Assembly (NCBI GenBank): GCA_964035575.1
Contig: OZ037835.1
Coordinates: 1,488,001 to 1,552,000 of the forward strand
Origin: Rhynchopus sp. YZ270_cl-10
Lineage: Eukaryota
Direction of reading: 5' to 3'
Length of the DNA: 64,000 nucleotides
Part shown: one piece after another, positions 9,478-58,512 of the stretch
Numbering within the stretch: the stretch's first letter is position 1
Layout of the letters: the number at the start of each line of letters is the position of its first letter
The notes under the pieces: model-generated
The model's database searches: none
Seen by the model: only the letters and a program-made list of their open reading frames with translations
What the model was told of the DNA's origin: nothing
Position numbers and translations under genes: made by a program

Positions 9478-12400
9478 ATGCGAAGGCATATCATGTACGC
9501 CGCAGCCTTCTTGTTGCTGCTTGTGAGTGAAGTGGTGTCGCAGCCGACTGAGCTGCCGTGTGATCGGGCCGTTGAGACTATTGTCCAGTTCGCAGACAAG
9601 GATAGCATTCAGCTCCCCGTGCCGCCATCTAACACTACACTGTTTGGGGGTATCATTCAGGTTGACTTGGACGTTATTATCAATGCATACACCAATTACG
9701 GGCGTTTTGTTGAGTTTGGTAGCGGCATCAGCAACAACAATTTCATTATTGGACAGTTCCAAACCACAGGGCATCTGTATGTCAGCAGCACTTGGGGAGA
9801 ACCGAAGTTACGTGTGTTCTACAACAAAACACTGCCGTTGGGAGAGACGTTTCATGTTCGGGTCATTTGCGTGCCCATTGACGACGAGACATCAACCTAC
9901 TACGTGTACATCAACGACAAATTTGTCACAGAAGGGGTCAGTGAGGCACTCAGATACGTAACTCGTTCGCTTTTCTTGATTGGCGAAAGCAGCTACACCA
10001 TCGCCTCCATACCCCACATACCCCTCGACGGCAGTGTCACGAACTGTGTCATGTTAATGTGTCCTCCGCCAACTGCAGTGCCGTGCGCTCGCGACGTTGT
10101 GACTGTGGTCCAATTCGCAGACAAGGATAACAGACAGCTGCCCGTGCCGCCCAGTGAGGAGACACTGTTTGGGGGTGCAGTTCAGGTTGACATGGACGTT
10201 ATTATCAATACATACACCAATTACGGGCGTTTTGTTGATATTGGGAACGGCGCCAGCAGCGACAACTTTATTATTGGACAGTACAAAAACACAGGGCATC
10301 TGTATGTCAGCAGCACTTGGACAGCACCGAAGTTACGTGTGATCTACAACGAAACACAGCTGCCGTTGGGAAAGACGTTTCATGTTCGGGTCATTTGCGT
10401 GCCGATTGACGACGAGACATCAACCTACTACGTGTACATCAACGGCGTATTTGTCATAGAGGGGGTCAGTGAGGCACTCAGATACGTAACTCGTTCGGAA
10501 GTCTTGATTGGCGAAAGCAGCTTCACCATCGGCACAATACCCCATATAGACCTCGACGGCAGTGTCACGAACTGTGTCATGTTAATGTGTCCTCCGCCAA
10601 CTGCAGTGCCGTGCACTCGCGACGTTGTGACAGTGGTCCAGTTCACAGACAAGGATAACATTCAGCTCCCCGTGCCGCCAACTAACGAGACACTGTTTGG
10701 GGGTGCAGTTCAGGTTGACATGGACGTTATTATCAATGCATACACCAATTACGGGCGTTTTGTTGATATTGGGAACGGCGCCAGCAGCGACAACTTTATT
10801 ATTGGACAGTACAAAAACACAGGGCATCTGTATGTCAGCAGCACTTGGACAGCACCGAAGTTACGTGTGATCTACAACGAAACACAGCTGCCGTTGGGAG
10901 AGACGTTTCATGTTCGGGTCATTTGCGTGCCCATTGACGACGAGACATCAACCTACTACGTGTACATCAACGACGAATTTGTCACAGAGGGGGTCAGTGA
11001 GGCACTCAGATACGTAACTCGTTCGGAAGTCTTGATTGGCGTGAGCAGCTTCACCATCGGCTCAATACCCCACATACCCCTCGACGGCAATGTCACGAAC
11101 TGTGTCATGGTCATGTGTCCTGGGGATACACCTGCCCCACCAACTGCTATTCCAACTGCTGAACACACAGCCATCCCAACAGCAGTGCCAACAGCTGAAC
11201 CGACTGCTACTCCTACTGTACCAACCGACATTCCAACTGCAGTGCCCGATACGATCCCAACTAAAATGCAGTGCGATGGCAAAGTTGTGACTGTGGTTAA
11301 TTTCACAGACAAGGATAACATTCAGCTGCCGCCAACTAGTGTGACACTGTTTGGAGGTGCAGTTCAGGTTGAGATGGACGTTATTATCAATGCATACACC
11401 AATTACGGGCGTTTTGTTGAGTTTACGAACGGCATCGGCGACGATAATTTCATTATTGGACAGTTCAAAACCACAGGGCATCTGTATGTCAGCTGCACTT
11501 GGGGAGAACCGAAGTTACGAGTGTTCTACAACAAAACACTGCCGTTGGGAGAGACGTTTCAGGTTCGGGTCATTTGCGTGCCCATTGACGATGAGACATC
11601 AACCTACTACGTGTACATGAACGACAAATTTGTCACAGAAGGGGTCAGTGAGGCACTCAGATACGTAACTCGTTCGCTTTTCTTGATTGGCGAAAGCAGC
11701 TACGGAACCGTCGCCTCAATACCCCACATACCCCTCGACGGCAGTGTCACGAACTGTGTCATGTTAATGTGTCTTGTGGACACATTTGCCCCGCCAACTG
11801 CTATTCCAACTGCAGTGCCCGCTTGGATCCCAACTGAAATGCCGTGCACTCGGGATGTGGTGACTGTGGTTAATTTCACAGACAAGGATAACATTCAGCT
11901 CCCCGTGCCGCCAACTAGCGTGACACTGTTTGGGGGTATCATTCAGGTTGACTTGGACGTTATTATCAATGCATACACCAATTACGGGCGTTTTGTTGAG
12001 TTCGGTAGCGGCATCAGCAACAACAATTTTATTATTGGACAGTTCAAAAGCACAGGGCATCTGTATGTCAGCTGCACTTGGGGAGAACCGAAGTTACGTG
12101 TGTTCTACAACAAAACACTGCCGTTGGGAAAGACGTTTCATGTTCGGGTCATTTGCGTGCCCATTGACGACGAGACATCAACCTACTACGTGTACATCAA
12201 CGACGAATTTGTCACAGAGGGGGTCAGTGAGGCACTCAGATACGTAACTCGTTCGCTTTTCTTGATTGGCGAAAGCAGCTACACCACGGCCTACATACCC
12301 CACATACCTCTCGACGGCAGTGTCACGAACTGTGTCATGTTAATGTGTCCTGGGGATACACCTGCCCCAACTGCTATTCCAACTGCTATTCCAACTGCTG

Positions 12401-15400
12401 AACACACAGCCATCCCAACAGCAGTGACAACCGCTGAGCCGACTGCAGTGCCCGAAACGTATGATTGCGGGGCGTTCATGTGGTACACGGAGAGTACCGA
12501 CTGCCCAGACGGATACGAACTTGCGTCTCGCGACTACGTCTATCAGTGTATTGCTGACATTTGCAACAAGGTTGATTATTGGTCCTTTGTCAAGTTCGCA
12601 GAACCGCAGCAAGCAATAACTGGCAAAGGGACCAATCTAACTTGTGGAACTCAGCCATATAGAAAAAATCCTAATTATGGGTCTGCACTTTGCACACCAA
12701 CCATTCCAACTGAAATGCCTTGCACTCGGGATGTGGTGACTGTGGTTAATTTCACAGACAAGGATAACATTCAGCTCCCCGTGCCGACAACTAACGAGAC
12801 ACTGTTTGGGGGTATCATTCAGGTTGAGATGGACGTTATTATCAATGCATACACCAATTACGGGTGTTTTGTTGAGTTCGGTAGCGGCATCAGCAACAAC
12901 AATTTTATTATTGGACAGTTCCAAACCACAGGGCATCTGTATGTCAGCAGCACTTGGGGAGAACCGAAGTTACGTGTGTTCTACAACAAAACACTGCCGT
13001 TGGGAGAGACGTTTCAGGTTCGGGTCATTTGCGTGCCCATTGACGACGAGACATCAACCTACTACGTGTACATCAACGACGAATTTGTCACAGAGGGGGT
13101 CAGTGAGGCACTCAGATACGTAACTCGTTCGCTTTTCTTGATTGGCGAAAGCAGCTACGGAACCGTCGCCTCAATACCCCACATACCCCTCGACGGCAGT
13201 GTCACGAACTGTGTCATGTTAATGTGTCCTGGGGATACACCTGCCCCGCCAACTGCTATTCCAACTACGCCACCCCTGACAGAGACTCCTTCAGGGGACA
13301 CTAACACATCAACGTCTCCTTCGGTGGAGACAGCGGCACCACCGATGGAGGACACAGACACACCGATGCCACCTGCTGAGACACCTGCAGGTGATACGGA
13401 TTCTGCGTCCTCTGGAAGCACGGTTGTGGCAGTGCTTGTGACTGCAGGCCTTTGTATCATGTCTGCGTTGGTTTACAGCTGCTATCGCCTCTGTGTCGCG
13501 CAGCGGGGTAGAATGGACAACGACGAGTATTGTGCGGAGATGCGTCTCATAAGCTCGGACTCACAAGAGAACCCTGAGTTTGCTCCTGATGTTCTTTCCG
13601 ACGGCATTCTGGCATCGGTGCAGAGCACTGGTGAGAGCGTTCCGGTGAGTCTTCCCTCGGGTCCGCACGTCGAAGGCCCATCAGACCCTGTGTACGCGTC
13701 GTGGGTGAAGGACCGCGAGGTCGGCAGTGGTGCCTACGGTGTTGTGTACGTCGGACACCTGTCGGACGGGCGTGTGGTGGCGATGAAGGAGCAGACCTCT
13801 GCGACACGTGCAGATGCAGACGAGGCAGTTGCGAACCTGGAGCTGCTGCGCCGTCTGCGCCACCCACACCTGACGGAGATGTACGACGTGTGCTACGACG
13901 TGCCTGGACGGCGCATCTGCTGGCTCATGGAGTTCGTCTCGGGTGGGTCGCTTGGTGCATACGTGCGCAACCTTGGGCACAAGCTGGAGGAGGCGAAGGT
14001 GGTGTTCTACATGCGGCAGGTCCTGCAGGCAGTGAACTTCCTGCACATGAACAACGTTGTGCACCGTGACATCAAGGGCGAGAACATTCTCCTCACACGT
14101 GAGGGCACTGCGAAGCTCTGCGACTTTGACTCCATCAAATGCTGCGACAGCAACGGCACCGACTACAAAACCACTGAAAGCAGGGTCCGCACACAGATGA
14201 TGAGCACACAGTACAACACCTTGATGGGAACACCGAACTGGATGGCACCCGAGATGCTTGGGCAGTTGGCTGGATTTGTGGAGGCGGGGCCTGCGTGCGA
14301 CATCTTCAGCTTCGGGAGCACTGTGTCTGAGGTGTTGAACGAGGGTGTGCCTCCTGGGAACTTTGAGGGTGTGTGGGTGCATCTGGTCAAGACGATGCAG
14401 TTCCCGCCTGTGAACATGGTGCAGGACGTGTCGCCTGAGGCCACAAGCTTCCTGTGTGCGTGTCTGAAGCGTGACCCTGAGGAACGCCCCACAGCAGGAG
14501 AGCTTCTGGAGGACCCGTTCATGACACGTTGGACAGATGCCCACATGACTGTGTCAGACACGACGTCCTGCCGACTGCTCACACCTCAACAGATGCAGAA
14601 GAGACAAACAATGCGCCCGCCCCTCGGGAAGGGTGCCTTCGGTGTGGTGTACAGGGCAACTGTGGACGGACGTGACGGACACGTTGCTGTGAAGGAAGTG
14701 CAGCTGGACGTTTCACACACGAGCAAGGCACGAGAACGTGTGGAGCGTGAGTTTGTGCTGATGCGTGAGCTGCACCACCCACACATTGTGCCGTACCTCG
14801 GACACATATGGCGTGACGGGACGTTGCTCGAGATCTTTATGGAGTACATGCCAGGTGGGTCTGTGCGCAACCTGCTGCGTGCACGCAGGAAGGGGCTGGA
14901 CGCAAGCACGATCTGCGAGTACACGAAGCAGGTGCTTCTTGGGCTGGAGTACCTGCACAGGGGTGGGAACGGGTTTGCACCGATTGCACACCGTGACGTG
15001 AAGGCGGAAAACCTGCTGCTGTCGATAGATGCGACAGTGAAGCTGTCTGACTTTGGATGCAGCAAGCTGTTTGAGTCGTCGTCTGAGGAAGTGAGCTTTG
15101 GTGCTGCTGGTGCGCAGACGTGTGTGGGGACGCCGTTCTGGATGGCGCCAGAGGTGCTGCAGCAGCGCACGGAGCGCAGTGGTGACTACGGGACACGGTG
15201 CGACGTGTGGTCGCTGGGGTGCACGGTGATTGAGATGCTGGGTGTGACACCGTGGCGAGCGAACGCACGTGAGGGCGAGCACGAGGTTCTGATGCGCATT
15301 CTGACAAGCACAGGTGGCCCGCCGATACCTGCAGCTGCGCCGCCTGCACTCACAGCCTTCCTCGCACGCTGCTTTGTGCGCGACCCTGCCTTGCGCCCGT

Positions 15401-15483
15401 CTGCACAGACGCTCCTCGAAGACGCTTACATCACACTTGGTGCAGACGAAGACGATGGCACAGCCTTGGAGCCTTTGCTCTGA
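9478..15483 (+). CDS. Single-pass receptor, ~2001 aa: signal peptide, six LamG/concanavalin-A-like repeats, APT-like module, PT stalks, TM helix, two tandem STE11/MAP3K-like kinase domains
   Basis: ATG 9478 gives signal peptide MRRHIMYAAAFLLLLVSEVVS; ~175-aa repeats with GRFVDIGNGASSDNFIIG/LPLGETFHV/YVTRS..LIGESS motifs; TM VVAVLVTAGLCIMSALVY; kinase 1 GSGAYG, VAMK, HRDIKGEN, DFD, GTPNWMAPE; kinase 2 GKGAFG, VAVK, HRDVKAEN, DFG, GTPFWMAPE. Confidence 0.92.
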   Translation: MRRHIMYAAAFLLLLVSEVVSQPTELPCDRAVETIVQFADKDSIQLPVPPSNTTLFGGIIQVDLDVIINAYTNYGRFVEFGSGISNNNFIIGQFQTTGHLYVSSTWGEPKLRVFYNKTLPLGETFHVRVICVPIDDETSTYYVYINDKFVTEGVSEALRYVTRSLFLIGESSYTIASIPHIPLDGSVTNCVMLMCPPPTAVPCARDVVTVVQFADKDNRQLPVPPSEETLFGGAVQVDMDVIINTYTNYGRFVDIGNGASSDNFIIGQYKNTGHLYVSSTWTAPKLRVIYNETQLPLGKTFHVRVICVPIDDETSTYYVYINGVFVIEGVSEALRYVTRSEVLIGESSFTIGTIPHIDLDGSVTNCVMLMCPPPTAVPCTRDVVTVVQFTDKDNIQLPVPPTNETLFGGAVQVDMDVIINAYTNYGRFVDIGNGASSDNFIIGQYKNTGHLYVSSTWTAPKLRVIYNETQLPLGETFHVRVICVPIDDETSTYYVYINDEFVTEGVSEALRYVTRSEVLIGVSSFTIGSIPHIPLDGNVTNCVMVMCPGDTPAPPTAIPTAEHTAIPTAVPTAEPTATPTVPTDIPTAVPDTIPTKMQCDGKVVTVVNFTDKDNIQLPPTSVTLFGGAVQVEMDVIINAYTNYGRFVEFTNGIGDDNFIIGQFKTTGHLYVSCTWGEPKLRVFYNKTLPLGETFQVRVICVPIDDETSTYYVYMNDKFVTEGVSEALRYVTRSLFLIGESSYGTVASIPHIPLDGSVTNCVMLMCLVDTFAPPTAIPTAVPAWIPTEMPCTRDVVTVVNFTDKDNIQLPVPPTSVTLFGGIIQVDLDVIINAYTNYGRFVEFGSGISNNNFIIGQFKSTGHLYVSCTWGEPKLRVFYNKTLPLGKTFHVRVICVPIDDETSTYYVYINDEFVTEGVSEALRYVTRSLFLIGESSYTTAYIPHIPLDGSVTNCVMLMCPGDTPAPTAIPTAIPTAEHTAIPTAVTTAEPTAVPETYDCGAFMWYTESTDCPDGYELASRDYVYQCIADICNKVDYWSFVKFAEPQQAITGKGTNLTCGTQPYRKNPNYGSALCTPTIPTEMPCTRDVVTVVNFTDKDNIQLPVPTTNETLFGGIIQVEMDVIINAYTNYGCFVEFGSGISNNNFIIGQFQTTGHLYVSSTWGEPKLRVFYNKTLPLGETFQVRVICVPIDDETSTYYVYINDEFVTEGVSEALRYVTRSLFLIGESSYGTVASIPHIPLDGSVTNCVMLMCPGDTPAPPTAIPTTPPLTETPSGDTNTSTSPSVETAAPPMEDTDTPMPPAETPAGDTDSASSGSTVVAVLVTAGLCIMSALVYSCYRLCVAQRGRMDNDEYCAEMRLISSDSQENPEFAPDVLSDGILASVQSTGESVPVSLPSGPHVEGPSDPVYASWVKDREVGSGAYGVVYVGHLSDGRVVAMKEQTSATRADADEAVANLELLRRLRHPHLTEMYDVCYDVPGRRICWLMEFVSGGSLGAYVRNLGHKLEEAKVVFYMRQVLQAVNFLHMNNVVHRDIKGENILLTREGTAKLCDFDSIKCCDSNGTDYKTTESRVRTQMMSTQYNTLMGTPNWMAPEMLGQLAGFVEAGPACDIFSFGSTVSEVLNEGVPPGNFEGVWVHLVKTMQFPPVNMVQDVSPEATSFLCACLKRDPEERPTAGELLEDPFMTRWTDAHMTVSDTTSCRLLTPQQMQKRQTMRPPLGKGAFGVVYRATVDGRDGHVAVKEVQLDVSHTSKARERVEREFVLMRELHHPHIVPYLGHIWRDGTLLEIFMEYMPGGSVRNLLRARRKGLDASTICEYTKQVLLGLEYLHRGGNGFAPIAHRDVKAENLLLSIDATVKLSDFGCSKLFESSSEEVSFGAAGAQTCVGTPFWMAPEVLQQRTERSGDYGTRCDVWSLGCTVIEMLGVTPWRANAREGEHEVLMRILTSTGGPPIPAAAPPALTAFLARCFVRDPALRPSAQTLLEDAYITLGADEDDGTALEPLL

Positions 15484-16159
15484 CCACATGCACGGTACGC
15501 GTACTGACAGCTCTTTACGACTGTGGATGTTGGTGCACGAAGAGAGTCACCTTCTTTGTCTGCTGGTTAACAAGAGCACTATCGCATGCCTTGTTCACCT
15601 GTGGAGTGCGACACGTTTACTCCCCCGATGTTGCTGTTACTGCAGTAGGTGGCTGTGTGTGCGAAGCGTGATGAGAAGCTCTGGGATCTGCTGAGGATGC
15701 TGTGTGTGCTAACGATACTATCCTCACCCACCCCTGTTACGGCGTACGAGCGATAAAGTTTTGTTGTGGTGTCATGTTTACGAATGCGCCGAACGTCTAC
15801 CGTTTACCGTTTACCGAAGTATATTTTGCATTTTGTTTTGGGTTTTTTTGGGGTTCTTTAGCAAGGGATCGATTCTCTTGGGCAGGGTAGAGTGGGAGGG
15901 GGTTTGTCAAGGAGTTATTTCGAAATGGTCCCCTCGTTTCTTTTTTATTGATCCATTTCATACTTAGCAGTCTGCCTGAGTTCAGACGGACTATGGTCGA
16001 CTTTGAAAGTCAGCGATAGTCCATCTCAAGCCCGCGGTGGACTTAAGGTTGACTTGAGATGGCGGGCTTGGTGGATTCAGTCAAAAGTCCGTCTCAATTC
16101 GGGCGGGTCTTAGTGGGATTTTGTTTGTGATGGATTCAGGCGGGCTAGAAAGTATTCAC

Positions 16160-21392: not shown

Positions 21393-22584
21393 TAGGGGAT
21401 ACGACTCCAGCCATTTTGGCTGGGACCAAACGCACGGAAAATTCATTTGGCATTATCTGGCCATCTCCAAGGCAACTGCGGGTGAAAAACACCCTCAGAG
21501 TGGGTCACAGGGGGCCTGTGGGTCGAAAAACGACCCAGAAGCCACCCCAGAATACAAAAAAATGGAAAAAAATAGTGAAAAAACGGCTTTTTTCACGTTT
21601 TGGCCACTTTGGGCAAAATAGCGATTTTTCGAGAAAAAAATCAAAAACCGGGATATTTTTTGACATCACAAAGCCTCCTTTGGCACAAATATACCCCAAA
21701 AGTGGCCTGTGAGTCCATTCCAACCTGTTTTGGACATATTTGACACTTTTGGAAGTGTTTTTTTGGTGTTTTTAGGTCAAAAAAATGCCCAAGACGTCCC
21801 CAAGACATCCCCAAGACACTTTGCACACCCCCTGTTACGGTCATATTTTTTTCGTTTTTTTGCCTGAAACCCCCAAAATACCCCTCCCGGACCCCACATA
21901 GTCCCGAATATCCATCACACACCCACTCAGAGTGAGTAGAAGCACCCCAAAAAAAATATTTTTTAAAGCCCTTCAACTTCAACATGGATGCTGCCGAAAC
22001 TGAAGCACAATTTTAGGGCTTTAAAAAATATTTTTTTTGGGGTGCTTCTACTCACTCTGAGTGGGTGTGTGATGGATATTCGGGACTATGTGGGGTCCGG
22101 GAGGGGTATTTTGGGGGTTTCAGGCAAAAAAACGAAAAAAATATGACCGTAACAGGGGGTGTGCAAAGTGTCTTGGGGATGTCTTGGGGACGTCTTGGGC
22201 ATTTTTTTGACCTAAAAACACCAAAAAAACACTTCCAAAAGTGTCAAATATGTCCAAAACAGGTTGGAATGGACTCACAGGCCACTTTTGGGGTATATTT
22301 GTGCCAAAGGAGGCTTTGTGATGTCAAAAAATATCCCGGTTTTTGATTTTTTTCTCGAAAAATCGCTATTTTGCCCAAAGTGGCCAAAACGTGAAAAAAG
22401 CCGTTTTTTCACTATTTTTTTCCATTTTTTTGTATTCTGGGGTGGCTTCTGGGTCGTTTTTCGACCCACAGGCCCCCTGTGACCCACTCTGAGGGTGTTT
22501 TTCACCCGCAGTTGCCTTGGAGATGACCAGATAATGCCAAATGAATTTTCCGTGCGCAAAAAATGGCTGGAGTCGTACCCCCTA
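21393..22584. mobile_element. Foldback element, ~580-bp inverted arms, 42-bp spacer
   Basis: TAGGGGATACGACTCCAGCC ... GGCTGGAGTCGTACCCCCTA; spacer 21973-22014; flanked by poly-G; second copy at 62850-63969. Confidence 0.92.
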
Positions 22585-22586
22585 GG

Positions 22587-24032
22587 CATAGGTGCCCGGC
22601 GAGTTAAAAACAACTCGGCAACTCGCCCAAATTCGCCCAACAACTCGCCCATTTTTTTTGGGCGAGTTGATTTTTTTTGGCATTTTTTATACACAGGTAC
22701 ACAGGTACACAGGTACACAGGTACACAGGTACACAGGTACACAGGTACACAGGTACACAGGTACACAGGTACACAGGTACACAGGTACACAGGTACACAG
22801 GTACACAGGTACACAGGTACACAGGTACACAGGTACACAGGTACACAGGTACACAGGTACACAGGTACACAGGTACACAGGTACACAGGTACACAGGTAC
22901 ACAGGTACACAGGTACACAGGTACACAGGTACACAGGTACACAGGTACACAGGTACACAGGTACACAGGTACACAGGTACACAGGTACACAGGTACACAG
23001 GTACACAGGTACACAGGTACACAGGTACACAGGTACACAGGTACACAGGTACACAGGTACACAGGTACACAGGTACACAGGTACACAGGTACACAGGTAC
23101 ACAGGTACACAGGTACACAGGTACACAGGTACACAGGTACACAGGTACACAGGTACACAGGTACACAGGTACACAGGTACACAGGTACACAGGTACACAG
23201 GTACACAGGTACACAGGTACACAGGTACACAGGTACACAGGTACACAGGTACACAGGTACACAGGTACACAGGTACACAGGTACACAGGTACACAGGTAC
23301 ACAGGTACACAGGTACACAGGTGCACAGGTGCACAGGTGCACAGGTGCACCACATCACATTTTATCTTGTGCATCTCAGCTTGAACGACTCTTTGCCGCT
23401 TCACAGCTGGTCTGTGAATGTGCGCTTTGGGTGGTTTTGTATGCTTTGTATCCCAAGGGAAGTCGTCGCCCAAAGCATTTTGACTGAACGTGCGAACGTT
23501 GTGAACCTGGAATCGATAGCAGACAGGAAAAGAGGATGAGCAGGCGGCGCCTGCCCGACCTGTGTGAAGTGAATCAGTGATTGCCTGACAGATGTCTGGG
23601 GAACCGTGTGTTCTGTGTGGGTAGCCATGTACGGAGAAAATCCCATTCCCCCCAGCAATTACCAAAAACCGTGAGTGTGCACGGTGACCCATGGACCACC
23701 ACGACCTAGTTACCACCTATGACTAGTCATATGACAAGGTGCATGTAATGAGTGGCGTTTGGCCTTAGCCCTGGTTGTTTTTCTTGAGATCATGTGTTGT
23801 ACCAACGTTACATGTGTGTAACCTTACAACGTCCCCTCCCATCCCTGTATGTTTTTGCCTGTAAAAATGGGCGAGTTGTGGCCGAGTTGTGGGCGAGTTG
23901 TGCCGAGTATAGGGCGAGTTGTGCCGAGTATAGGGCGAGTTGTGGCCGAGTTGTGCGAGTTTTGGGCGAGTTGTTTGGTAAAATCGTGGAGTTCGGACAA
24001 CTCGCCCAAAAACGACTCGGCCGGCACCTATG
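22587..24032. mobile_element. TIR element, CATAGG termini, 6-bp TSD CCTAGG, carrying a satellite
   Basis: CATAGGTGCC ... GGCACCTATG; CCTAGG at 22581-22586 and 24033-24038; GGCGAGTTG subterminal repeats. Confidence 0.88.
22691..23350. repeat. Tandem repeat (ACACAGGT)n, ~79 copies plus a few GCACAGGT variants
   Basis: Read directly from the sequence. Confidence 0.98.
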
Positions 24033-26590: not shown

Positions 26591-26875
26591 AGAGATAAGA
26601 AGTCCAGAAAAATAGGCAAAAGAGAGAAAGCAAAGAGATTTTGACAAAAATAAAATAAAATAAAATAGGGGCAATATACGGGTTTACGGGTTTACCACAA
26701 TAACCGTTCCCTGGTCACAGACTTTATTGCAGTGGTCTTGTCCACCAAGGACGTTTCATCACCTGACCCAACACAAAGACTGATGTCCCCATTCTCTGTT
26801 GTGTTACCGCACACCTTTCTCTCCCTATGTTGTACAAGCCACACAAGCACCCACCACAGGCCCCCTCCCTTTCTT

Positions 26876-29800
26876 ATGACTCGATATCACACGCTGTTGG
26901 TGCTGTTACTGCAAAGTGTCTTCGCACCTGCCTATGTATTGATGCCCAGCGGCTGCACAGACTCCGGGTGCTGGATGAAGTGCGGTGGGTGGCGAGACCG
27001 GAACTCTGCTCAGGATTGGTACGGCTACTTCCTGTACTCTGCCGAGGGGTCGCCACTGGCAAAGGAGATCAACGGCGGTGAGGACGAGAATGTGTTTGTG
27101 TGGAAGCTTGGGATACCGGAAGGGGGCAGTCTTGTGGATGGGTGGACGCTGACACGGAACGGCACCTTCGTGACTGCGTTGAACAGCAGTGCTGACTTTA
27201 AGTACACAGAGCTGCTGAAGATGACAGGTGTGCCCAGTGTGACGCAGATGCCTGACGACTTCTCTGCAGTCGGGAATTTGGAGAACACACACTTCATATC
27301 TGTGACCTCGTCGACATCTTTGCGGTACGGGCCCACCCCGCTCCAGGCAAGGGACATGACCTCATATGATGTAACCGTCACGGCTGTGCACGCCCTGCAG
27401 TCGCTGTACCTCGTGGAGGTTGTGCACAGTGCGTCCAGTTGGACTGCAGTCTGGTGTCTTGCGCTCGACGGCACGCTACACCCCGTCATCCCCACAGCGT
27501 GCACGGCGCTGTCGACGGCACACAACCCCGTGAAGGTGCTGACACACGCAGACAGCTTCGCGGTGCTCTACCCAGACGGGACAGTGCAGGCAAGCAGCGT
27601 CGGAGCTCTCTCCTCGGTGTCGGACCTCTTCGTCGTGGACGGCGTCTACTACGCGCTCGTGAACAACACAATACAGACCTGGGGTGCGCTGTCCTCCGAA
27701 ACCACGCCGGTTGTGCCGTCACACCCGTTCAACTTTGTGCCGTACTTCGGGAACACGATCTTCTATGCGAATGCGGAGGGTGGGGTGGTTTTGAACAGGG
27801 ACAGCACAGTGTCGGTGTGGGGCGACGGCTCGCACAGCACGGTGCAGACACGCTTTGTGGATGTGGAGAATGTATACGTGAACTCGGGTGCGTTTGTGCT
27901 GCTGCACTCCGACATGACGGTGACTGCGTGGGGGAAGGCGAGCTGTGGCGGGGACTCGTCGAGTGTGGATCATCTGTTTGGGTCTGTCGTCGGCCAGATT
28001 GCGACACACCCGGCAAGCCGTGCCTTTGCTGTCCTCAACGCAACAGGCCACGTCATCTCGTGGGGTGGTGGTGATGCATATTCAGTAAGTTCCTACATCT
28101 CTACGTACAACTACACCCTCATCAATGCTCTACCCACAGGGTTCGTGGGCCACAGATGGGTAGACACTGCAGTACTGCGGTGGGGTGACCTTCCTAGTGC
28201 CATCGGTCAGTGCACTTCGTTTTTGTATCCTCAGTCATGTGACGCTTTCCGTTGCAAACATGGGTGGTGGAAGCCGAATCCTGCAGAGATCGTGTGCGAC
28301 TGGAGCACTCCGTATGAAGACTGCACAGAGGCAACCTGCTGTGTGGTACCTGTAACAGCTGCACCCCCAACACCAGAACCAACATCTGCACCTGATACGC
28401 AGGTTCCAACCACGTCGCCAACAAGCATCCCCCCGACACTGCCGCCAGCAACATCTGCACCAGTGACATCTGCACCAGCAACAGCACCGCCGACAGCGCC
28501 TACTTCAAAGCCGACAACGCAGGTACCTGCAACGGCGGCTCCACAGGACAGCGCCGCACCACTACCACCCCCAACAGAGTCACCTACAGCTCGGACAGTG
28601 CCACCCAAGACAGGTACACCCAAGACAGAGCCACCCAACACAGGTACACCCACTCAGTCACCCACAACAGAGTCACCTACAGCTCGGACAGTGCCACCCA
28701 AGACAGAGCCACCCAAGACAGGTACACCCAAGACAGAGCCACCCAACACAGGTACACCCACTCAGTCACCCACAACAGAGTCACCTACAGCTCGGACAGT
28801 GCCACCCAAGACAGAGCCACCCAACACAGGTACACCCACTCAGTCACCCACAACAGAGTCACCACCGCACACAATTACGCCACCCCTGACAGGGACTCCT
28901 TCAGGGGCCACTATCACATCAGAGTCTCCTTCGGTGGAGACACCGGCACCACCGATGGAGGACACAGACACACCGATGCCATCTGCTGAGACAGCGCAAC
29001 CAACATTCTCACCGGGCCAGGACTTGGACACAAAAACGCCAAGTGTGCTGGAGACGGATACGCCTGCAACTGGCACGGCTTCTGCGTCCTCTGGCAGCAC
29101 GGTTGTGGCAGTGCTTGTGACTGCAGGTGTTTGTATCGTGTCTGCGTTGTCTTACGTCTCCTATCGGCGCTGTGTCACGCAGCGGGGCAGAATGGACAAC
29201 GCGGAGTCTTTTGTGGAGATGCAAACGGGGCTCATAAGCTCAGTCCTACAAGAGAACCCTGAGTTTGCTCCTGATGTTCTCTCTGCTGAATTGCTGGGAA
29301 CGGTGCAGAGCACTGGTGAGAGTGTGCCGGTGAGTCTTCCCTCGGGTCCCAGTGTCGAAGGCCCATCAGACCCTGTGTACGCGTCGTGGGTGAAGGACCG
29401 CGAGGTCGGCAGTGGTGCCTACGGTGTTGTGTACGTCGGGCACCTGTCGGACGGGCGTGTGGTGGCGATGAAGGAGCAGACCTCTGCGACACGTGCAGAT
29501 GCAGACGAGGCAGTTGCGAACCTGGAGCTGCTGCGCCGTCTGCGCCACCCACACCTGACGGAGATGTACGACGTGTGCTACGACGTGCCTGGACGGCGCA
29601 TCTGCTGGCTCATGGAGTTCGTCTCGGGTGGGTCGCTTGGTGCATACGTGCGCAACCTTGGGCACAAGCTGGAGGAGGCGAAGGTGGTGTTCTACATGCG
29701 GCAGGTCCTGCAGGCAGTGAACTTCCTGCACATGAACAACGTTGTGCACCGTGACATCAAGGGCGAGAACATTCTCCTCACACGTGAGGGCACTGCGAAG

Positions 29801-31183
29801 CTCTGCGACTTTGGCTCCATCAAATGCTGCGACAGCAACGGGAACGTACATTATACAATTAACAACAAAGCCACTGAAAGCAGGGTCCGCACACAGATGA
29901 TGAGCACACGGCACAACACCTTGATGGGAACACCGAACTGGATGGCACCCGAGATGCTTGGGCAGCTGACTGGGTTCGTGGAGGCGGGGCCTGCGTGCGA
30001 CATCTTCAGCTTCGGGAGCACTGTGTCTGAGGTGTTGAACGAGGGTGTGCCTCCTGGGAACTTTGAGGGTGCGTGGGTGCATCTGGTCAAGACGATGCAG
30101 TTCCCGCCTGTGAACATGGTGCAGGACGTGTCGCCTGAGGCCACAAGCTTCCTGTGTGCGTGTCTGAAGCGTGACCCTGAGGAACGCCCCACAGCAGGAG
30201 AGCTTCTGGAGGACCGGTTCATGACACGTTGGACAGACGCCCACATGACTGTGTCAGACACGACGTCCTGCCGACTGCTCACACCTCAACAGATGCAGAC
30301 GAGACAAACAATGCGCCCACCCCTCGGGAAGGGTGCCTTCGGTGTGGTGTACAGGGCAACTGTGGACGGACGTGACGGACACGTTGCTGTGAAGGAAGTG
30401 CTGCTTGAGGTCTCACACACAAGCAAGGCACGAGAACGTGTGGAGCGTGAGTTTGTGCTGATGCGTGAGCTGCACCACCCACACATTGTGCCGTACCTCG
30501 GACACCTGTGGCGTGACGGGACGTTGCTCGAGATCTTTATGGAGTACATGCCAGGTGGGTCTGTGCGCAACCTGCTGCGTGCACGCAGGAAGGGGCTGGA
30601 CGCAGGCACGATCTGCGAGTACACGAAGCAGGTGCTTCTTGGGCTGGAGTACCTGCACAGGGGTGGGAACGGGTTTGCACCGATTGCACACCGTGACGTG
30701 AAGGCGGACAACCTGCTGCTGTCGATAGATGCGACAGTGAAGCTGTCTGACTTTGGATGCAGCAAGCTGTTTGAGTCGTCGTCTGAGGAAGTGAGCTTTG
30801 GTGCTGCTGGTGCGCAGACGTGTGTGGGGACGCCGTTCTGGATGGCGCCAGAGGTGCTGCAGCAGCGCACGGAGCGCAGTGGTGACTACGGGACACGGTG
30901 CGACGTGTGGTCGCTGGGGTGCACGGTGATTGAGATGCTGGGTGTGACACCGTGGCGAGCGAACGCACGTGAAGGCGAGCACGAGGTTCTGATGCGCATT
31001 CTGACAAGCACAGGTGGCCCGCCGATACCTGCAGCTGCGCCGCCTGCACTCACAGCCTTCCTCGCACGCTGCTTTGTGCGCGACCCTGCCTTGCGCCCGT
31101 CTGCACAGACGCTCCTCGAAGACGCTTACATCACACTTGGTGCAGACGAAGACGATGGCACAGCCTTGGAGCCTTTGCTCTGA
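26876..31183 (+). CDS. Single-pass receptor, ~1435 aa: signal peptide, RCC1/BLIP-II-like repeats, Cys-rich module, PT mucin stalk, TM helix, tandem STE11/MAP3K-like kinases
   Basis: ATG 26876 gives MTRYHTLLVLLLQSVFA; AFVLLHSDMTVTAWGKASCGGDSSSV and AFAVLNATGHVISWG repeats; SCDAFRC...CTEATCC; both kinase domains have DFG. Confidence 0.92.
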   Translation: MTRYHTLLVLLLQSVFAPAYVLMPSGCTDSGCWMKCGGWRDRNSAQDWYGYFLYSAEGSPLAKEINGGEDENVFVWKLGIPEGGSLVDGWTLTRNGTFVTALNSSADFKYTELLKMTGVPSVTQMPDDFSAVGNLENTHFISVTSSTSLRYGPTPLQARDMTSYDVTVTAVHALQSLYLVEVVHSASSWTAVWCLALDGTLHPVIPTACTALSTAHNPVKVLTHADSFAVLYPDGTVQASSVGALSSVSDLFVVDGVYYALVNNTIQTWGALSSETTPVVPSHPFNFVPYFGNTIFYANAEGGVVLNRDSTVSVWGDGSHSTVQTRFVDVENVYVNSGAFVLLHSDMTVTAWGKASCGGDSSSVDHLFGSVVGQIATHPASRAFAVLNATGHVISWGGGDAYSVSSYISTYNYTLINALPTGFVGHRWVDTAVLRWGDLPSAIGQCTSFLYPQSCDAFRCKHGWWKPNPAEIVCDWSTPYEDCTEATCCVVPVTAAPPTPEPTSAPDTQVPTTSPTSIPPTLPPATSAPVTSAPATAPPTAPTSKPTTQVPATAAPQDSAAPLPPPTESPTARTVPPKTGTPKTEPPNTGTPTQSPTTESPTARTVPPKTEPPKTGTPKTEPPNTGTPTQSPTTESPTARTVPPKTEPPNTGTPTQSPTTESPPHTITPPLTGTPSGATITSESPSVETPAPPMEDTDTPMPSAETAQPTFSPGQDLDTKTPSVLETDTPATGTASASSGSTVVAVLVTAGVCIVSALSYVSYRRCVTQRGRMDNAESFVEMQTGLISSVLQENPEFAPDVLSAELLGTVQSTGESVPVSLPSGPSVEGPSDPVYASWVKDREVGSGAYGVVYVGHLSDGRVVAMKEQTSATRADADEAVANLELLRRLRHPHLTEMYDVCYDVPGRRICWLMEFVSGGSLGAYVRNLGHKLEEAKVVFYMRQVLQAVNFLHMNNVVHRDIKGENILLTREGTAKLCDFGSIKCCDSNGNVHYTINNKATESRVRTQMMSTRHNTLMGTPNWMAPEMLGQLTGFVEAGPACDIFSFGSTVSEVLNEGVPPGNFEGAWVHLVKTMQFPPVNMVQDVSPEATSFLCACLKRDPEERPTAGELLEDRFMTRWTDAHMTVSDTTSCRLLTPQQMQTRQTMRPPLGKGAFGVVYRATVDGRDGHVAVKEVLLEVSHTSKARERVEREFVLMRELHHPHIVPYLGHLWRDGTLLEIFMEYMPGGSVRNLLRARRKGLDAGTICEYTKQVLLGLEYLHRGGNGFAPIAHRDVKADNLLLSIDATVKLSDFGCSKLFESSSEEVSFGAAGAQTCVGTPFWMAPEVLQQRTERSGDYGTRCDVWSLGCTVIEMLGVTPWRANAREGEHEVLMRILTSTGGPPIPAAAPPALTAFLARCFVRDPALRPSAQTLLEDAYITLGADEDDGTALEPLL

Positions 31184-31404
31184 CCACATGCACGGTATGC
31201 GTACTGACAGCTCTTTACGACTGTGGATGTTGGTGCACTGCTAATTGCGGGGGGTGGGGGGTTTATTTAAGGGGAGAACTGTTCCATGAAATTGTGTAAT
31301 ACGTGTGTGTGATTGAAGACAGATATAGTTTCTGCTAGCAACATTTACCGGTACGTGTATGTATTATGGTAACGTATTTTACAGTACCTACTCCCCCCCC
31401 CCGG

Positions 31405-32881: not shown

Positions 32882-33380
32882 AAGGAACGTATCGTCTCCC
32901 GCGTATGGTATGGGTCGCGCAACGATTAAACACAAAAGACGAACGGGTATTGCATCATTTTCAAGGTGCTTGCACATGGCGATGCTTCAGTGCATCGCCA
33001 GTACATTCATTATTCAAGTTTTTTTTTTTGAAAACGTGGTTGTATATCATGGATGTACAAAGTACTTGATTACTTTTTTTCACTTTTTTTGGTGTACTTC
33101 AAGTACTTGATCGATTTAAAAAAAAAGAAAAAAATATTTTTTTCTTGCTTCAATGTACCGTTTTGCCTATGACACTACTGGGCACAACTAGCACCATACT
33201 CACCTGAGCTGTGCCTATATTAGGCACAATTCCAGTACAGTTTCAGCACAAGTACACACAACTAACCACAACTAACCACAATTACACCACAATTACACAC
33301 AATTACACCGAAATTACGCTGGGGAAAAAAATGGTACACCACCCTACAGGGAAGCATGCCACCACATGTAAGTGACCTCT

Positions 33381-33720
33381 GTACTGTACTGTACTGTACT
33401 GTACTGTACTGTACTGTACTGTACTGTACTGTACTGTACTGTACTGTACTGTACTGTACTGTACTGTACTGTACTGTACTGTACTGTACTGTACTGTACT
33501 GTACTGTACTGTACTGTACTGTACTGTACTGTACTGTACTGTACTGTACTGTACTGTACTGTACTGTACTGTACTGTACTGTACTGTACTGTACTGTACT
33601 GTACTGTACTGTACTGTACTGTACTGTACTGTACTGTACTGTACTGTACTGTACTGTACTGTACTGTACTGTACTGTACTGTACTGTACTGTACTGTACT
33701 GTACTGTACTGTACTGTACT
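33381..33720. repeat. Tandem repeat (GTACT)n, 68 copies
   Basis: Read directly from the sequence. Confidence 0.98.
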
Positions 33721-33734
33721 GAACTCCCAATCCC

Positions 33735-34026
33735 CTGTGTATACTGTGTATACTGTGTATACTGTGTATACTGTGTATACTGTGTATACTGTGTATACTG
33801 TGTATACTGTGTATACTGTGTATACTGTGTATACTGTGTATACTGTGTATACTGTGTATACTGTGTATACTGTGTATACTGTGTATACTGTGTATACTGT
33901 GTATACTGTGTATACTGTGTATACTGTGTATACTGTGTATACTGTGTATACTGTGTATACTGTGTATACTGTGTATACTGTGTATACTGTGTATACTGTG
34001 TATACTGTGTATACTGTGTATACTGC
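33735..34026. repeat. Tandem repeat (CTGTGTATA)n, ~32 copies
   Basis: Read directly from the sequence. Confidence 0.98.
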
Positions 34027-41851: not shown

Positions 41852-44800
41852 ATGGTGAATAACCGTACTGCGTTGTTCATCTATGCACTTCTGTCACTGT
41901 GTCATGTTGACGGGGCGGGGATGCCGCCATACTATAATGTGAAGGTGAGGAGCACATGCACCTCCACCGGGTGCTGGATGACGTGCGGGTCGGATTCGCG
42001 TACATACATTTACTCGTCTGTGAATGCTACACTACCTGAGGAGTATAATGGGGGGAATGATTCGAGGTTCCAGGAGGGGTCGCTTGCGCTGGCAGAAGGG
42101 GGTACCTTAAGCAATATGTGGCAGTTGACGAGCAGGAACCCGCACCTCTCCCCGCTTGTTCCTAACCCGACGTTTACTGAGACGTTTGGAAGTTTCGTGA
42201 GAATATTTTCGTCGCAAGTTGTCGGGAAAGACTACCCGCGGTACATAGCGGTGCAGGGCGAGGTGCTGGAGGTTGGCCCAGACCCCACATTGTCGGTGTA
42301 CGTTTCCAGCGCTCTAAACGTTGTCACCGCCGTGTACGCCCTGAAGACGATGTATTTAGTGGAGGTCGATCCTACTGATGCCAATCAAACCGGCTCGAAC
42401 GCAGTGTGGTGCCTGTCGCTCGACGGAAAGTTCCACCCCGTCATCCCCCCAGCGTGCACGCGGATGTCAAAAGCAACGGTCGCCCCAGTGAAGGTGCTGA
42501 CACACGCAGACAGCTTCGCGGTGCTCTACACGGACGGGACAGTGCAGGCAAGCAGCGTCGGAGCTTTCTCCTTGGTGGTGGACCTCTTCGTCGTGGACGG
42601 CGTCTACTACGCGCTCGTGAACGACAATACAATTTACACGTGGACCGCCTCGTCGGTTGAGACCACGCTGCTTGCGTCGTCGCGCCCATTTGACTTCATG
42701 CCGTATCTGGGGAACATTGTGTTCTATGCGAATGCGGAGGGTGGGGTGGTTTTGAACAGGGACAGCACAGTGTCGGTGTGGGGCGACGGCTCGCACAGCA
42801 CAGTGCAGACACGCTTTGTGGATGTGGAGAATGTGTACGTGAACTCGGGTGCGTTTGTGCTGCTGCACTCCGACATGACGGTGACTGCGTGGGGGAAGGC
42901 GAGCTGTGGCGGGGACGCCACTACAGTTGCTTCTGCGTTTGGTGTCGCTATGGTGACAATTGCATCTGCTCAGGATGGCACGGCATTTGCGGCACACTTG
43001 GCGTCCACACTCAAGGTCGTGGCCTGGGGCGGCCAAGGTGGGAACTTCCCTGCGAGCACGCTAGGGAAAAACATTGCGTCATTTGTGCTTCCTTTATCGC
43101 AGGGCTTTGCAGCCTATGTTCTGTCTACGGCTAAGCCAGGCTACCATTTCAAAGAAGTCATGACGTGGGGTGACATCCCCAGCTCCTCGGATATGTCCTG
43201 GTGTACTGGTTATATTGTTCCCTCGTGCCTGACGGTGCGCTGCCCTTCTGGGTGGTGGATAGACAATCCTGAGGACACTACCTGCGACGAAAGGTGCACT
43301 GCGGACACATGCTGCAAAACACCACCCACAGAGGCACCTTTGGCTGTATCCACGACAGTACCAATCACCACAGTGCCAGATACTGCCGAACCTACGTTAC
43401 CCCCGACAGACGCGCCAAAGACAAACGCTCCACCGACAGCTGCCCCTACTGCCGAACCTACGTTGCCTCCGACAGACGCACCAAAGACAAATGCGCCATC
43501 AACAGACGCACCAACGACAAATCTTCCATCAACACCTGTCCCAGAAACTCCCAAACCATTTCCGCCGCCAATGACAAACGCTCCACCGACAGACGCGCCA
43601 AAGACAAATGCGCCATCAACAGACTCACCAATGACAAATCTTCCATCAACAGCTGTCCCAGAAACTCCCAAACCAATTTTGCCTCCGACAGACGCACCAA
43701 AGACAAATGCGCCATCAACAGACTCACCAATGACAAATCTTCCATCAACACCTGTCCCAGAAACTCCCAAACCATTTCCGCCGCCAATGACAAACGCTCC
43801 ACCGACAGCTGCCCCAGACACCGCCGCACCTGCCTCTTTGCCGTCTAGCACTGCACCTACAGCAGCGCCTACAGACGCACCGCACACCAACACACCGACA
43901 TCAGCCCCGACAGATCCACCTGGAGCGAATGTGACAGACACAGCCGCGCCCTCAACCCTGCCACCGACAGACGCGCCTACCGAGTACCCGCGCACGGTGA
44001 CGCCGGAGAAGATAAACGTGCCTGACACGAGGCCCCCGCGTACGGTGATACCGGGCACTACAATACCACTGGGGACAATTGACCCTCCTACACAAGCACC
44101 CCCGAAGACAGACGTGCCCGACACAGCCGTGCCCTTAACCATACCGCCCACATACGGTCCTACGCACGCCTCGCACATCACGGAGAGCCTGAGCCCGGGT
44201 GATGAGGGACTGCCCACTGACACGGCGGTACCAGTGGGTGATGCGACCGCAGGCCCAGAGAGTCCTTCAGATTCAGGTGGGAATGGTGCTGTGAGTGCGG
44301 TGCTGATCACGGTGGGTGTGCTGGTCGTGCTGTGCATGTCGCTGTTGGTGCGTAGGAGGTGGCGTACGCGGCGTGGGGAGGTCGCCACATACGCAGCCGA
44401 GCAGATGATGGCAAACCCGCTGGTCGAGATGCGCGACAGTGTCGTGACGGACATCGAGGAGCTGCCGTACCCCAGCGCCTCTGAGGACGTCACAGCGACG
44501 TCGCCCTCCTACGTGTTGCACAGCCTGCAGAGCACTGGTGTGTCCATAAGTGGTCACTTGCCCACAGGTTGTGGCGTAGAAGGCCCATCAGACCCTGTGT
44601 ATGCGTCGTGGGTGAAGGACCGCGAGGTCGGCAGTGGTGCCTACGGTGTTGTCTACGTCGGGCACCTGTCGGACGGGCGTGTGGTGGCGATGAAGGAGCA
44701 GATCTCTGCGACACGTGCAGATGCAGACGAGGCAGTTGCGAACCTGGAGCTGCTGCGCCGTCTGCGCCACCCACACCTGACGGAGATGTACGACGTGTGC

Positions 44801-46393
44801 TACGACGTGCCTGGACGGCGCATCTGCTGGCTCATGGAGTTCGTCTCGGGTGGGTCGCTTGGTGCATACGTGCGCAACCTTGGGCACAAGCTGGAGGAGG
44901 CGAAGGTGGTGTTCTACATGCGGCAGGTCCTGCAGGCAGTGAACTTCCTGCATATGAACAACGTTGTGCACCGTGACATCAAGGGCGAGAACATTCTCCT
45001 CACACGTGAGGGCACTGCGAAGCTCTGCGACTTTGACTCCATCAAATGCTGCGACACAGATGATACTGACTACAAAACCACTGAAAGCAACATCTGCACA
45101 CAGCGGGTGAGCACACAGTACAACACACAGGTCGGCAGTCCTCACTGGATGGCACCCGAGATGCTTGGGCAGCTGACTGGGTTTGTGGAGGCGGGGCCTG
45201 CGTGTGACATCTTCAGCTTCGGGAGCACTGTGTCTGAGGTGCTGAACGAGGGTGTGCCTCCTGGGAACTTTGAGGGTGCGTGGGTGCATCTGGTCAAGAC
45301 GATGCAGTTCCCGCCTGTGAACATGGTGCAGGACGTGTCGCCTGAGGCCACAAGCTTCCTGTGTGCGTGTCTGAAGCGTGACCCTGAAGAACGCCCCACA
45401 GCAGGAGAGCTTCTGGAGGACCCGTTCATGGCACAGTGGGCAGACGCGCACATGACCATCTCGGACGACACGTCTGCCGAACCCTCCGCAAAGTGGCTCA
45501 CGTCACGGGCTATGCGCAGTCGCACGCGTATGCGCCCACCCCTCGGGAAGGGTGCATTCGGTGTGGTGTACAGGGCAACTGTGGACGGACGTGACGGACA
45601 CGTTGCTGTGAAGGAAGTGCAGCTGGATGTTTCACACACAAGCAAGGCACGAGAACGTGTGGAGCGTGAGTTTGTGCTGATGCGTGAGCTGCACCACCCA
45701 CACATTGTGCCGTACCTCGGACACATATGGCGTGACGGGACGCGGCTCGAGATCTTTATGGAGTACATGCCAGGTGGGTCTGTGCGCAACCTGCTGCGTG
45801 CACGCAGGAAGGGTCTGGACGCAGGCACGATCTGCGAGTACACGAAGCAGGTGCTTCTTGGGCTGGAGTACCTGCACAGGGGTGGGAACGGGTTTGCACC
45901 GATTGCACACCGTGACGTGAAGGCGGACAACCTGCTGCTGTCGATAGATGCGACAGTGAAGCTGTCTGACTTTGGATGCAGCAAGCTGTTTGAGTCGTCG
46001 TCTGAGGAAGTGAGCTTTGGTGCTGCTGGTGCGCAGACGTGTGTGGGGACGCCGTTCTGGATGGCGCCAGAGGTGCTGCAGCAGCGCACGGAGCGCAGTG
46101 GGGACTACGGGACACGGTGCGACGTGTGGTCGCTGGGGTGCACGGTGATTGAGATGCTGGGTGTGACACCGTGGCGGGAGAACGCACGTGAGGGCGAGCA
46201 CGAGGTTCTGATGCGCATTCTGACAAGCACAGGTGGCCCGCCGATACCTGCAGCTGCGCCGCCTGCACTCACAGCCTTCCTCGCACGCTGCTTTGTGCGC
46301 GACCCTGCCTTGCGCCCGTCTGCACAGACGCTCCTCGAAGACGCTTACATCACACTTGAACAATACACGAGTTCCTGTGCCCCCCTGGAGTAA
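41852..46393 (+). CDS. Single-pass receptor, 1513 aa: signal peptide, RCC1/BLIP-II-like repeats, Cys-rich module, long PT stalk, TM helix, tandem STE11/MAP3K-like kinases
   Basis: MVNNRTALFIYALLSLCHVDG; CTSTGCWMTC; RCC1-like core shared with the 26876 gene; TM AVSAVLITVGVLVVLCMSLLV followed by RRRWR; kinase 1 DFD, kinase 2 DFG. Confidence 0.92.
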   Translation: MVNNRTALFIYALLSLCHVDGAGMPPYYNVKVRSTCTSTGCWMTCGSDSRTYIYSSVNATLPEEYNGGNDSRFQEGSLALAEGGTLSNMWQLTSRNPHLSPLVPNPTFTETFGSFVRIFSSQVVGKDYPRYIAVQGEVLEVGPDPTLSVYVSSALNVVTAVYALKTMYLVEVDPTDANQTGSNAVWCLSLDGKFHPVIPPACTRMSKATVAPVKVLTHADSFAVLYTDGTVQASSVGAFSLVVDLFVVDGVYYALVNDNTIYTWTASSVETTLLASSRPFDFMPYLGNIVFYANAEGGVVLNRDSTVSVWGDGSHSTVQTRFVDVENVYVNSGAFVLLHSDMTVTAWGKASCGGDATTVASAFGVAMVTIASAQDGTAFAAHLASTLKVVAWGGQGGNFPASTLGKNIASFVLPLSQGFAAYVLSTAKPGYHFKEVMTWGDIPSSSDMSWCTGYIVPSCLTVRCPSGWWIDNPEDTTCDERCTADTCCKTPPTEAPLAVSTTVPITTVPDTAEPTLPPTDAPKTNAPPTAAPTAEPTLPPTDAPKTNAPSTDAPTTNLPSTPVPETPKPFPPPMTNAPPTDAPKTNAPSTDSPMTNLPSTAVPETPKPILPPTDAPKTNAPSTDSPMTNLPSTPVPETPKPFPPPMTNAPPTAAPDTAAPASLPSSTAPTAAPTDAPHTNTPTSAPTDPPGANVTDTAAPSTLPPTDAPTEYPRTVTPEKINVPDTRPPRTVIPGTTIPLGTIDPPTQAPPKTDVPDTAVPLTIPPTYGPTHASHITESLSPGDEGLPTDTAVPVGDATAGPESPSDSGGNGAVSAVLITVGVLVVLCMSLLVRRRWRTRRGEVATYAAEQMMANPLVEMRDSVVTDIEELPYPSASEDVTATSPSYVLHSLQSTGVSISGHLPTGCGVEGPSDPVYASWVKDREVGSGAYGVVYVGHLSDGRVVAMKEQISATRADADEAVANLELLRRLRHPHLTEMYDVCYDVPGRRICWLMEFVSGGSLGAYVRNLGHKLEEAKVVFYMRQVLQAVNFLHMNNVVHRDIKGENILLTREGTAKLCDFDSIKCCDTDDTDYKTTESNICTQRVSTQYNTQVGSPHWMAPEMLGQLTGFVEAGPACDIFSFGSTVSEVLNEGVPPGNFEGAWVHLVKTMQFPPVNMVQDVSPEATSFLCACLKRDPEERPTAGELLEDPFMAQWADAHMTISDDTSAEPSAKWLTSRAMRSRTRMRPPLGKGAFGVVYRATVDGRDGHVAVKEVQLDVSHTSKARERVEREFVLMRELHHPHIVPYLGHIWRDGTRLEIFMEYMPGGSVRNLLRARRKGLDAGTICEYTKQVLLGLEYLHRGGNGFAPIAHRDVKADNLLLSIDATVKLSDFGCSKLFESSSEEVSFGAAGAQTCVGTPFWMAPEVLQQRTERSGDYGTRCDVWSLGCTVIEMLGVTPWRENAREGEHEVLMRILTSTGGPPIPAAAPPALTAFLARCFVRDPALRPSAQTLLEDAYITLEQYTSSCAPLE

Positions 46394-58273: not shown

Positions 58274-58512
58274 TCTACTTCTTTCTTCCACACACACTGG
58301 TTTTTGTGTTTGCTCATTTTATAAAAAAGCTTTCAAGTTTCGAGTGCGAAACATTTCCCGATGTATTGCACGGGAAACAATATTACAAACAGATGCAGGG
58401 TGGTTCCGTGCTTATCACAGAACCTGGCACGCGCTGCTCCGCTGTTGCATGTGTGTTCTTCGTCCTCTCTCGTTGCAACCTCCTCACAGAAGCAGCAACA
58501 CACAAACACACA

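Follow-up and report, generated by a model that had tools for sequence, protein, structure and literature searches.

Receptor gene and inserted module

The window (the whole stretch of 64,000 nt that was analysed) carries at positions 9478–15483 of the forward strand a single uninterrupted ORF, the product of which is a predicted single-pass receptor kinase of 2001 aa. The protein database entry for this receptor begins at the second methionine and counts 1996 aa. The hydrophobic N-terminus (9478–9543), noted by eye and below the hydropathy threshold used, is a likely signal peptide. It is followed by five repeats of about 168 aa each with Pro/Thr-rich linkers (9559–12348), an inserted module, a sixth repeat (12721–13227), a Pro/Thr/Ser-rich stalk (13228–13416) and a transmembrane helix (13417–13473, aa 1314–1332), the sole segment over the hydropathy threshold. 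Two kinase domains were recognised by Pfam (E 4e-108). The first (13699–14520) has the motifs GSGAYG, VAMK and HRDIKGEN with DFD replacing DFG, and judging from its motifs it may be regulatory or less active. In the second (14620–15435) the active-kinase motifs (Gly loop, VAxK, HRD, DFG, APE) are complete and all canonical, with GKGAFG, VAVK, HRDVKAEN, DFG and APE.

The six repeats start at aa 28, 203, 379, 599, 790 and 1082 and are 80–92% identical to repeat 5. By sequence, none of them matched an entry in Pfam or the PDB. Comparison with Laminin_G_3 clusters gave a value of 0.96 for Atlas features and agreement of the best family matches in 10 out of 10, with only 117–151 of the 256 features in common. 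The LamG label of the original prediction is kept here as a predicted LamG_3/concanavalin-like beta-sandwich fold, read from Atlas features only and not from any Pfam or PDB sequence match. A Pfam match of the repeats to CAA3_Cox_suIV was rejected as an artefact of summing over repeats (14.5 bits per repeat). Summed contig depth at 11700–13500 ran into the thousands over the LamG-like repeats versus about 8–180 over the module, which hints at many further repeat copies elsewhere, summed contig depth being no copy number.

Between repeat 5 (aa 790–957) and repeat 6 (aa 1082–1250) lies a six-cysteine module of 78 codons (12460–12693, forward strand), corresponding to residues 995–1072 of the receptor. 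It translates in frame to the peptide quoted in the original prediction, so that the module, its frame and its insert position are confirmed. Alignment of the linkers and domain edges showed that linkers 3-4 and 4-5 end in TAVP-xx-IPT(K/E)M, and that in the middle of linker 5-6 a stretch of 83 codons (12454–12702), covering the whole module, stands where the other linkers have two middle residues. The edges of the insert are domain edges, the 83-codon stretch aligning from one end to the other with the first domain in its relatives. The description of the module as unique applies within the window, where a tblastn search of the 64,000 nt found no second copy (next match E 2.3); beyond the window it belongs to a multi-copy family.

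Plant L-type lectin receptor-like kinases, which have the legume-lectin fold, also consist of extracellular concanavalin-like domains, a single helix and a cytoplasmic Ser/Thr kinase. The receptor described here differs from these in having six tandem repeats plus the module, two tandem kinases and an independent lineage.

Family and fold of the module

A phmmer search of the module against 1.84 billion protein representatives gave 24 matches at E≤0.001, 17 of which have between 1 and 15 copies of the six-cysteine module. Most of these proteins contain Pro/Thr linkers and show a signal-like N-terminus, a transmembrane helix at the C-terminus or both. One match, P0025, is bacterial-type, with three four-cysteine repeats and a score above the Pfam cut-off for the aerolysin/pertussis-toxin (APT) family (31.6 vs 25 bits). 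The other six, SpaA/PKD repeat proteins with summed weak matches (best domain at most 11.7 bits), were dropped. Three further six-cysteine proteins were obtained by a profile search. Judged by its sequence relatives, the module belongs to a family of eukaryote-type surface domains that had not been annotated before. Its species-named members, two proteins of Rhynchopus euleeides and DIPPA_20903 of Diplonema papillatum, suggest that the family and the host are diplonemid. Many of the remaining members lie on contigs of 0.2–1.5 Mb. No eukaryotic or diplonemid APT family was found in the literature searched, mostly main texts outside subscription journals. Word-indexed searches returned the module itself alone or no match, no relatives were found in plasmids or phages, and the module's best Atlas value, 0.91 at low recognition, was with a cluster rich in rotifers.

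Two relatives have a distinctive organisation. P0018 (DIPPA_20903, 7041 aa) is a giant membrane protein with 15 diverged module copies of 15–26 bits each, alternating with blocks of about 350 aa that resemble beta-propellers by eye. P0024 (350 aa) has six-cysteine repeats with a bacterial-like G-x-G-Y-G-C spacing and branches beside the bacterial rows in the tree described below, where a long-branch warning applies; it is a possible intermediate.

An AlphaFold model of the module as a single sequence reached a pLDDT of 44 and was not used. The model built from alignment A1, which combines the module with single domains of 15 eukaryote-type proteins (16 rows, none bacterial), had a pLDDT of 90.3 and a pTM of 0.79. 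With this model, all 11 Foldseek matches at E≤0.001 were aerolysin chains, the best with E 1.6e-4, a TMq of 0.74 and 18% identity. The next different proteins were pertussis toxin S3/S2 (TMq 0.57–0.69), followed by a Link module. Against viral structures there were no matches at E≤0.001. VIA-align, run over 48,161 chains, placed the model on aerolysin residues 3–77 with Z 11.1 and an rmsd of 1.8 Å over 74 aligned residues, the sole match with Z≥8. Pertussis toxin S3 followed (Z 7.2, rmsd 2.6, 75 aligned), and C-type-lectin-like domains made up most of the list, at Z of 6.8 or less. The APT or C-type-lectin-like fold put forward originally is supported by two structure searches and by the chain of profile matches given below. 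The outcome named there as a refutation, a lack of significant profile or structural matches to these folds, did not occur, and on the predicted model the module almost certainly has the APT fold.

According to passages in PMC8047071 and PMC12002313, APT is the receptor-binding domain common to aerolysin and pertussis toxin S2/S3. The module resembles aerolysin domain 1 (the small lobe; 1PRE, 9FMX; PF03440) in its predicted fold, and has a cysteine at the position of C19, a tryptophan at W45 and the G-x-G at G58/G60. It differs in its six cysteines versus two, in a threonine at the column of Tyr61, in the low identity and in falling below the Pfam cut-off; the pore-forming lobe is absent and the module sits in the ectodomain of a membrane kinase. 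With the APT domain at the N-terminus of pertussis toxin S2/S3 (1PRT, 6RO0) it has the fold in common (TMq 0.65–0.69), at 6–12% identity and without the AB5 B-oligomer domain or the enzyme subunit. Pfam searches of the whole protein and of two paralogues returned kinase families only, with no pore-forming lobe, B-oligomer or enzyme subunit among them. C-type lectin-like domains and Link modules belong to the same fold class (Z 5–6.8) but are clearly further away than APT: C-type lectin domains measure about 110–135 aa against 78 aa for the module, which has no Pfam lectin match. In snail biomphalysins, the corresponding part of PMC8047071 describes aerolysin pore lobes with small lobes that are not APT.

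By direct comparison, the sequence link to aerolysin was not visible. Three trims of the module gave no match to Pfam, neither to APT (PF03440, cut-off 25 bits) nor to lectin families. None of the 16 A1 members matched Pfam APT, and P0034, a full-length relative, scored 13.6 bits. Against the PDB, phmmer gave chance matches only for the module (E≥0.04), the A1 profile found nothing under E 0.3 and did not reach aerolysin by sequence, and P0025 had no match.

The link was obtained through bacterial repeats. A pattern scan of species genomes yielded a gene of Archangium minus (L001) with three repeats in a lipoprotein-like product, and in the 13-Mb genome of this species the A1 profile matched exactly those three repeats. 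Among 151 genomes of the same phylum, five were matched by the A1 profile, three of them true (best 40 bits, E 2.9e-9); the other two (L010, L011) were partial matches in unrelated Cys-rich repeats and were rejected. A search with a bacterial seed matched 4 of the 151 genomes. Weak partial loci were left out, three of four in the species-genome pattern scan and three of nine in a later locus search. Searches for PF03440 in G001 and for PF01117 in three genomes gave no match, and the control searches likewise matched nowhere.

The bacterial repeats were aligned in 12 rows (A3), of which four matched Pfam APT at E≤1; the bacterial relatives P0025, P0031 and L020 pass the Pfam APT gathering cut-off. 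A1 and A3 were matched by hhalign at 97.8% (E 9e-13, 65 columns). Searched against the PDB, A3 had one significant match, aerolysin residues 13–66 (E 6e-7). On the module itself A3 scored 24.7 bits, versus a best of 7.6 bits for shuffled sequences (1,894 reported of 2,000 shuffles). Because the profiles form a chain from A1 over A3 to aerolysin, the module is regarded as an APT homologue; the sequence homology to aerolysin domain 1 runs through these intermediates, below the Pfam threshold.

The bacterial APT-like repeats (L001 of Archangium minus; G066, G149 and G104; P0025 and P0031; L026–L029 from metagenomes) have four cysteines and the W...G-x-G-Y core in common with the module. They lack its first and third cysteine, are at most 28% identical to it and possess an invariant Arg and a GGS motif that are absent from the eukaryote-type family. 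Their proteins are secreted or lipoprotein-like, with the module in tandem repeats or as an N-terminal accessory domain ahead of other domains, for example a solute-binding protein. No toxin domain was found in six scanned proteins, L001, P0025 and P0031. At L029:2261-3481 a bacterial-type APT-like module precedes a protein of solute-binding type (SBP_bac_3, E 1e-9) as an N-terminal accessory; at L027:2160-3200 and in L028 it stands in the same way ahead of unannotated domains.

Binding face and proposed function

The best explanation, with a probability of about 0.6, is that a paralogous gene probably supplied the APT-fold domain by copying to a predicted lectin-type receptor kinase, in one linker of which it now likely provides a further type of glycan-recognition site. 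The mucin-like stalk would then bear the ectodomain as a rod that binds glycans multivalently, and the membrane-proximal APT module would contribute a second specificity through the face around Trp1035. Putative ligands are glycans of prey, of the substrate or of other cells. Multivalent binding would cluster the receptor, by which the cytoplasmic kinases could be switched on.

Residues were counted in 51 eukaryote-type and 16 bacterial-type domains with an A1 score of at least 30 bits and a length over 50 aa, leaving out identical rows, P0022 as a fragment and the weak copies of P0018. Four cysteines are common to both types, and two (aa 997 and 1024) occur in the eukaryote-type only; aerolysin is without the middle cysteine pair. 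Since cysteine pairs come and go together across the aerolysin, bacterial and eukaryotic members, the alignment suggests three disulfides, C1009–C1072, C1029–C1056 and C997–C1024. Trp1035 (12580–12582) aligns to aerolysin W45 in the profile alignments, and this column holds Trp in 41 of 51 eukaryote-type and all 16 bacterial-type domains. At the Tyr column of the G-x-G-Y motif, aerolysin Y61, all 16 bacterial-type domains likewise agree, and 44 of the 51 eukaryote-type ones also have Tyr. The columns aligned to I47 and M57 of aerolysin are variable across the family.

Y61, I47, M57 and K66 reportedly form the aerolysin site together with W45 (MacKenzie, 1999). According to bioRxiv 10.64898/2026.07.29.741567 and PMC4947156, domain 1 of aerolysin binds N-linked sugars, an activity that W45A disrupts, and an N-glycan site in the pertussis APT domain is described in part of PMC12002313.

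The module itself has Thr1052 (12631–12633) at the Tyr column, the sole Thr among the 51 eukaryote-type domains, followed by a sequon, N1053-L-T. Because Thr replaces the conserved Tyr in this copy, its ligand binding may be weakened or retuned. It is here that the main competing explanation arises, in which the module belongs to the APT fold but this copy is a passenger in decay, with no role in the stalk beyond that of a rigid spacer. The atypical residue (1/51) and the adjoining sequon fit such a role, as do the presence of a single module among six repeats and an insertion site in a flexible linker. The module has nevertheless retained its full set of six cysteines, both glycines and Trp1035, its frame is open with no differences in any of the four runs described below, its end branch in the tree (0.26) is not long, and Asn is common at the sequon column, being found in 12 of the 51 family domains. 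A passenger is unlikely, and this copy probably binds some ligand.

The nature of the ligand is the second point at which the explanations part. Function does not follow from a common fold, and proteins are frequent ligands of C-type-lectin-like folds. The module could bind a protein instead of a glycan, in self-recognition, adhesion or receptor pairing: its C-type-lectin-like fold neighbours include the protein-binding LLT1, KLRG1, CD72 and invasin, and the columns of the binding face are variable within the family. Against this, the two closest structures are glycan-binding domains and the equivalent of W45 is kept throughout the bacterial-type domains and in four-fifths of the eukaryote-type ones, which makes a protein ligand quite improbable. 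If the module binds, the ligand is very likely a glycan, as the preferred reading of an added glycan-recognition site holds.

Origin of the module and further features of the locus

The domains nearest to the module are P0017 (62% over 53 columns), P0035 (56%) and P0010 (47%), versus 28% for the best bacterial domain. A tree built from 67 rows and 80 columns makes P0017 the partner of the module (100/91), within a clade of five eukaryote-type rows (100/99); the bacterial rows group together (99/98). When 50 of these 67 rows were put to an AU test, joining the module to the bacterial ones was not rejected (p 0.24). With this p value and 80 columns the tree is weak by itself, and the argument is carried by the identities and the two extra cysteines.

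Two paralogous dual-kinase receptors are encoded on the forward strand of the window at 26669–31183 and 41852–46393, with ectodomains that have neither the repeats nor the module. The DNA of 13378–15538 is 95.9% identical to that of 29057–31238, and 13668–15439 is 95.1% identical to 44575–46358. Ectodomain shuffling is evident at the locus, since the paralogues combine about 95% DNA identity in the kinase part with different ectodomains. The first kinase domain of the three paralogues reads DFD in P0001 and P0003 and DFG in P0002. Because the nearest kin are eukaryote-type and ectodomains have been exchanged at this locus, the immediate source was most likely a paralogous surface-protein gene, and arrival by shuffling from a paralogue is judged highly probable. 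The whole family probably goes back to an ancient transfer involving a bacterial APT module of non-toxin type and not a toxin gene; that this transfer ran from bacteria is plausible, given the bacterial genes of D. papillatum described below.

The original prediction had instead proposed recruitment of a binding domain of bacterial-toxin type, with the module acting as a glycan sensor or an integrated decoy; in the direct form of this reading the domain would be taken from a bacterial toxin and work as an integrated decoy or toxin sensor. Aerolysin domain 1 is the best structural match, the AU test leaves the grouping with bacterial rows unrejected, and diplonemids carry bacterial genes, with at least 96 genes from bacteria, next to expanded kinase families, reported for D. 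papillatum in the relevant part of PMC10161547. A toxin origin nonetheless agrees poorly with identities of 18% to aerolysin and 28% to the bacterial repeats, versus 47–62% to the eukaryote-type paralogues, with the two cysteines common to eukaryote-type members only, and with bacterial kin that have no toxin domain. An integrated decoy mimics the host target of a pathogen effector. APT is the part with which a toxin itself is aimed and not a host target of this kind. Direct recruitment as a decoy or toxin sensor is accordingly considered very unlikely, and copying from a paralogue is retained.

A unitig of 354 nt (12397–12750) spanning the module and both junctions without differences was present in all four runs examined, out of five listed, from two studies; some of these runs may be the source of the window itself. 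As the identical unitig is present in 4/4 runs, the junctions are not an assembly artefact. An assembly chimera or contamination, for which only the GC3 of the module could be cited (0.47 vs 0.60 in the repeats, a difference that is not significant, p 0.07), is also contradicted by the intact frame and the eukaryote-type relatives and has a negligible probability.

In PMC10161547 the diplonemids are presented as marine protists of high abundance that probably feed as predators and whose kinase set is expanded. A broader reading, tentative and at somewhat less than even odds, is that diplonemids took the APT fold, which publications have so far presented as the aiming domain of toxins, and expanded it into a six-cysteine family of modules for recognising glycans at the surface. 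The family would be a protist counterpart of C-type-lectin receptors for prey or surfaces, and toxins would be just one late user of a general module for recognition. This would cover proteins with 1 to 15 copies, secreted, membrane-bound and here a signalling kinase. As non-toxin bacterial APT repeats already fall within the Pfam family, what appears new is only the six-cysteine eukaryotic branch and its deployment on a receptor kinase. The prediction extends a fold familiar from a pair of bacterial toxins to a eukaryotic family that is invisible to Pfam, on a signalling receptor, although the weight of this case is limited by the atypical Thr1052 in this very copy. The family offers small, expressible candidate modules for prey recognition by diplonemids, and the bacterial repeats are non-toxin intermediates for relating APT domains to C-type lectins.

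Elsewhere in the window two paralogous ankyrin-repeat genes are located at 54266–56350 and 58129–60210. The regions 21431–22556 and 62888–63941 are near-perfect palindromes (1129 bp at 97.7% and 1054 bp at 99.6%, respectively) with sequence in common. Tandem arrays of 8-bp and 10-bp units and an inverted pair near the start of the window were also observed, with coordinates 22690–23350, 33379–34025 and 845–2911.
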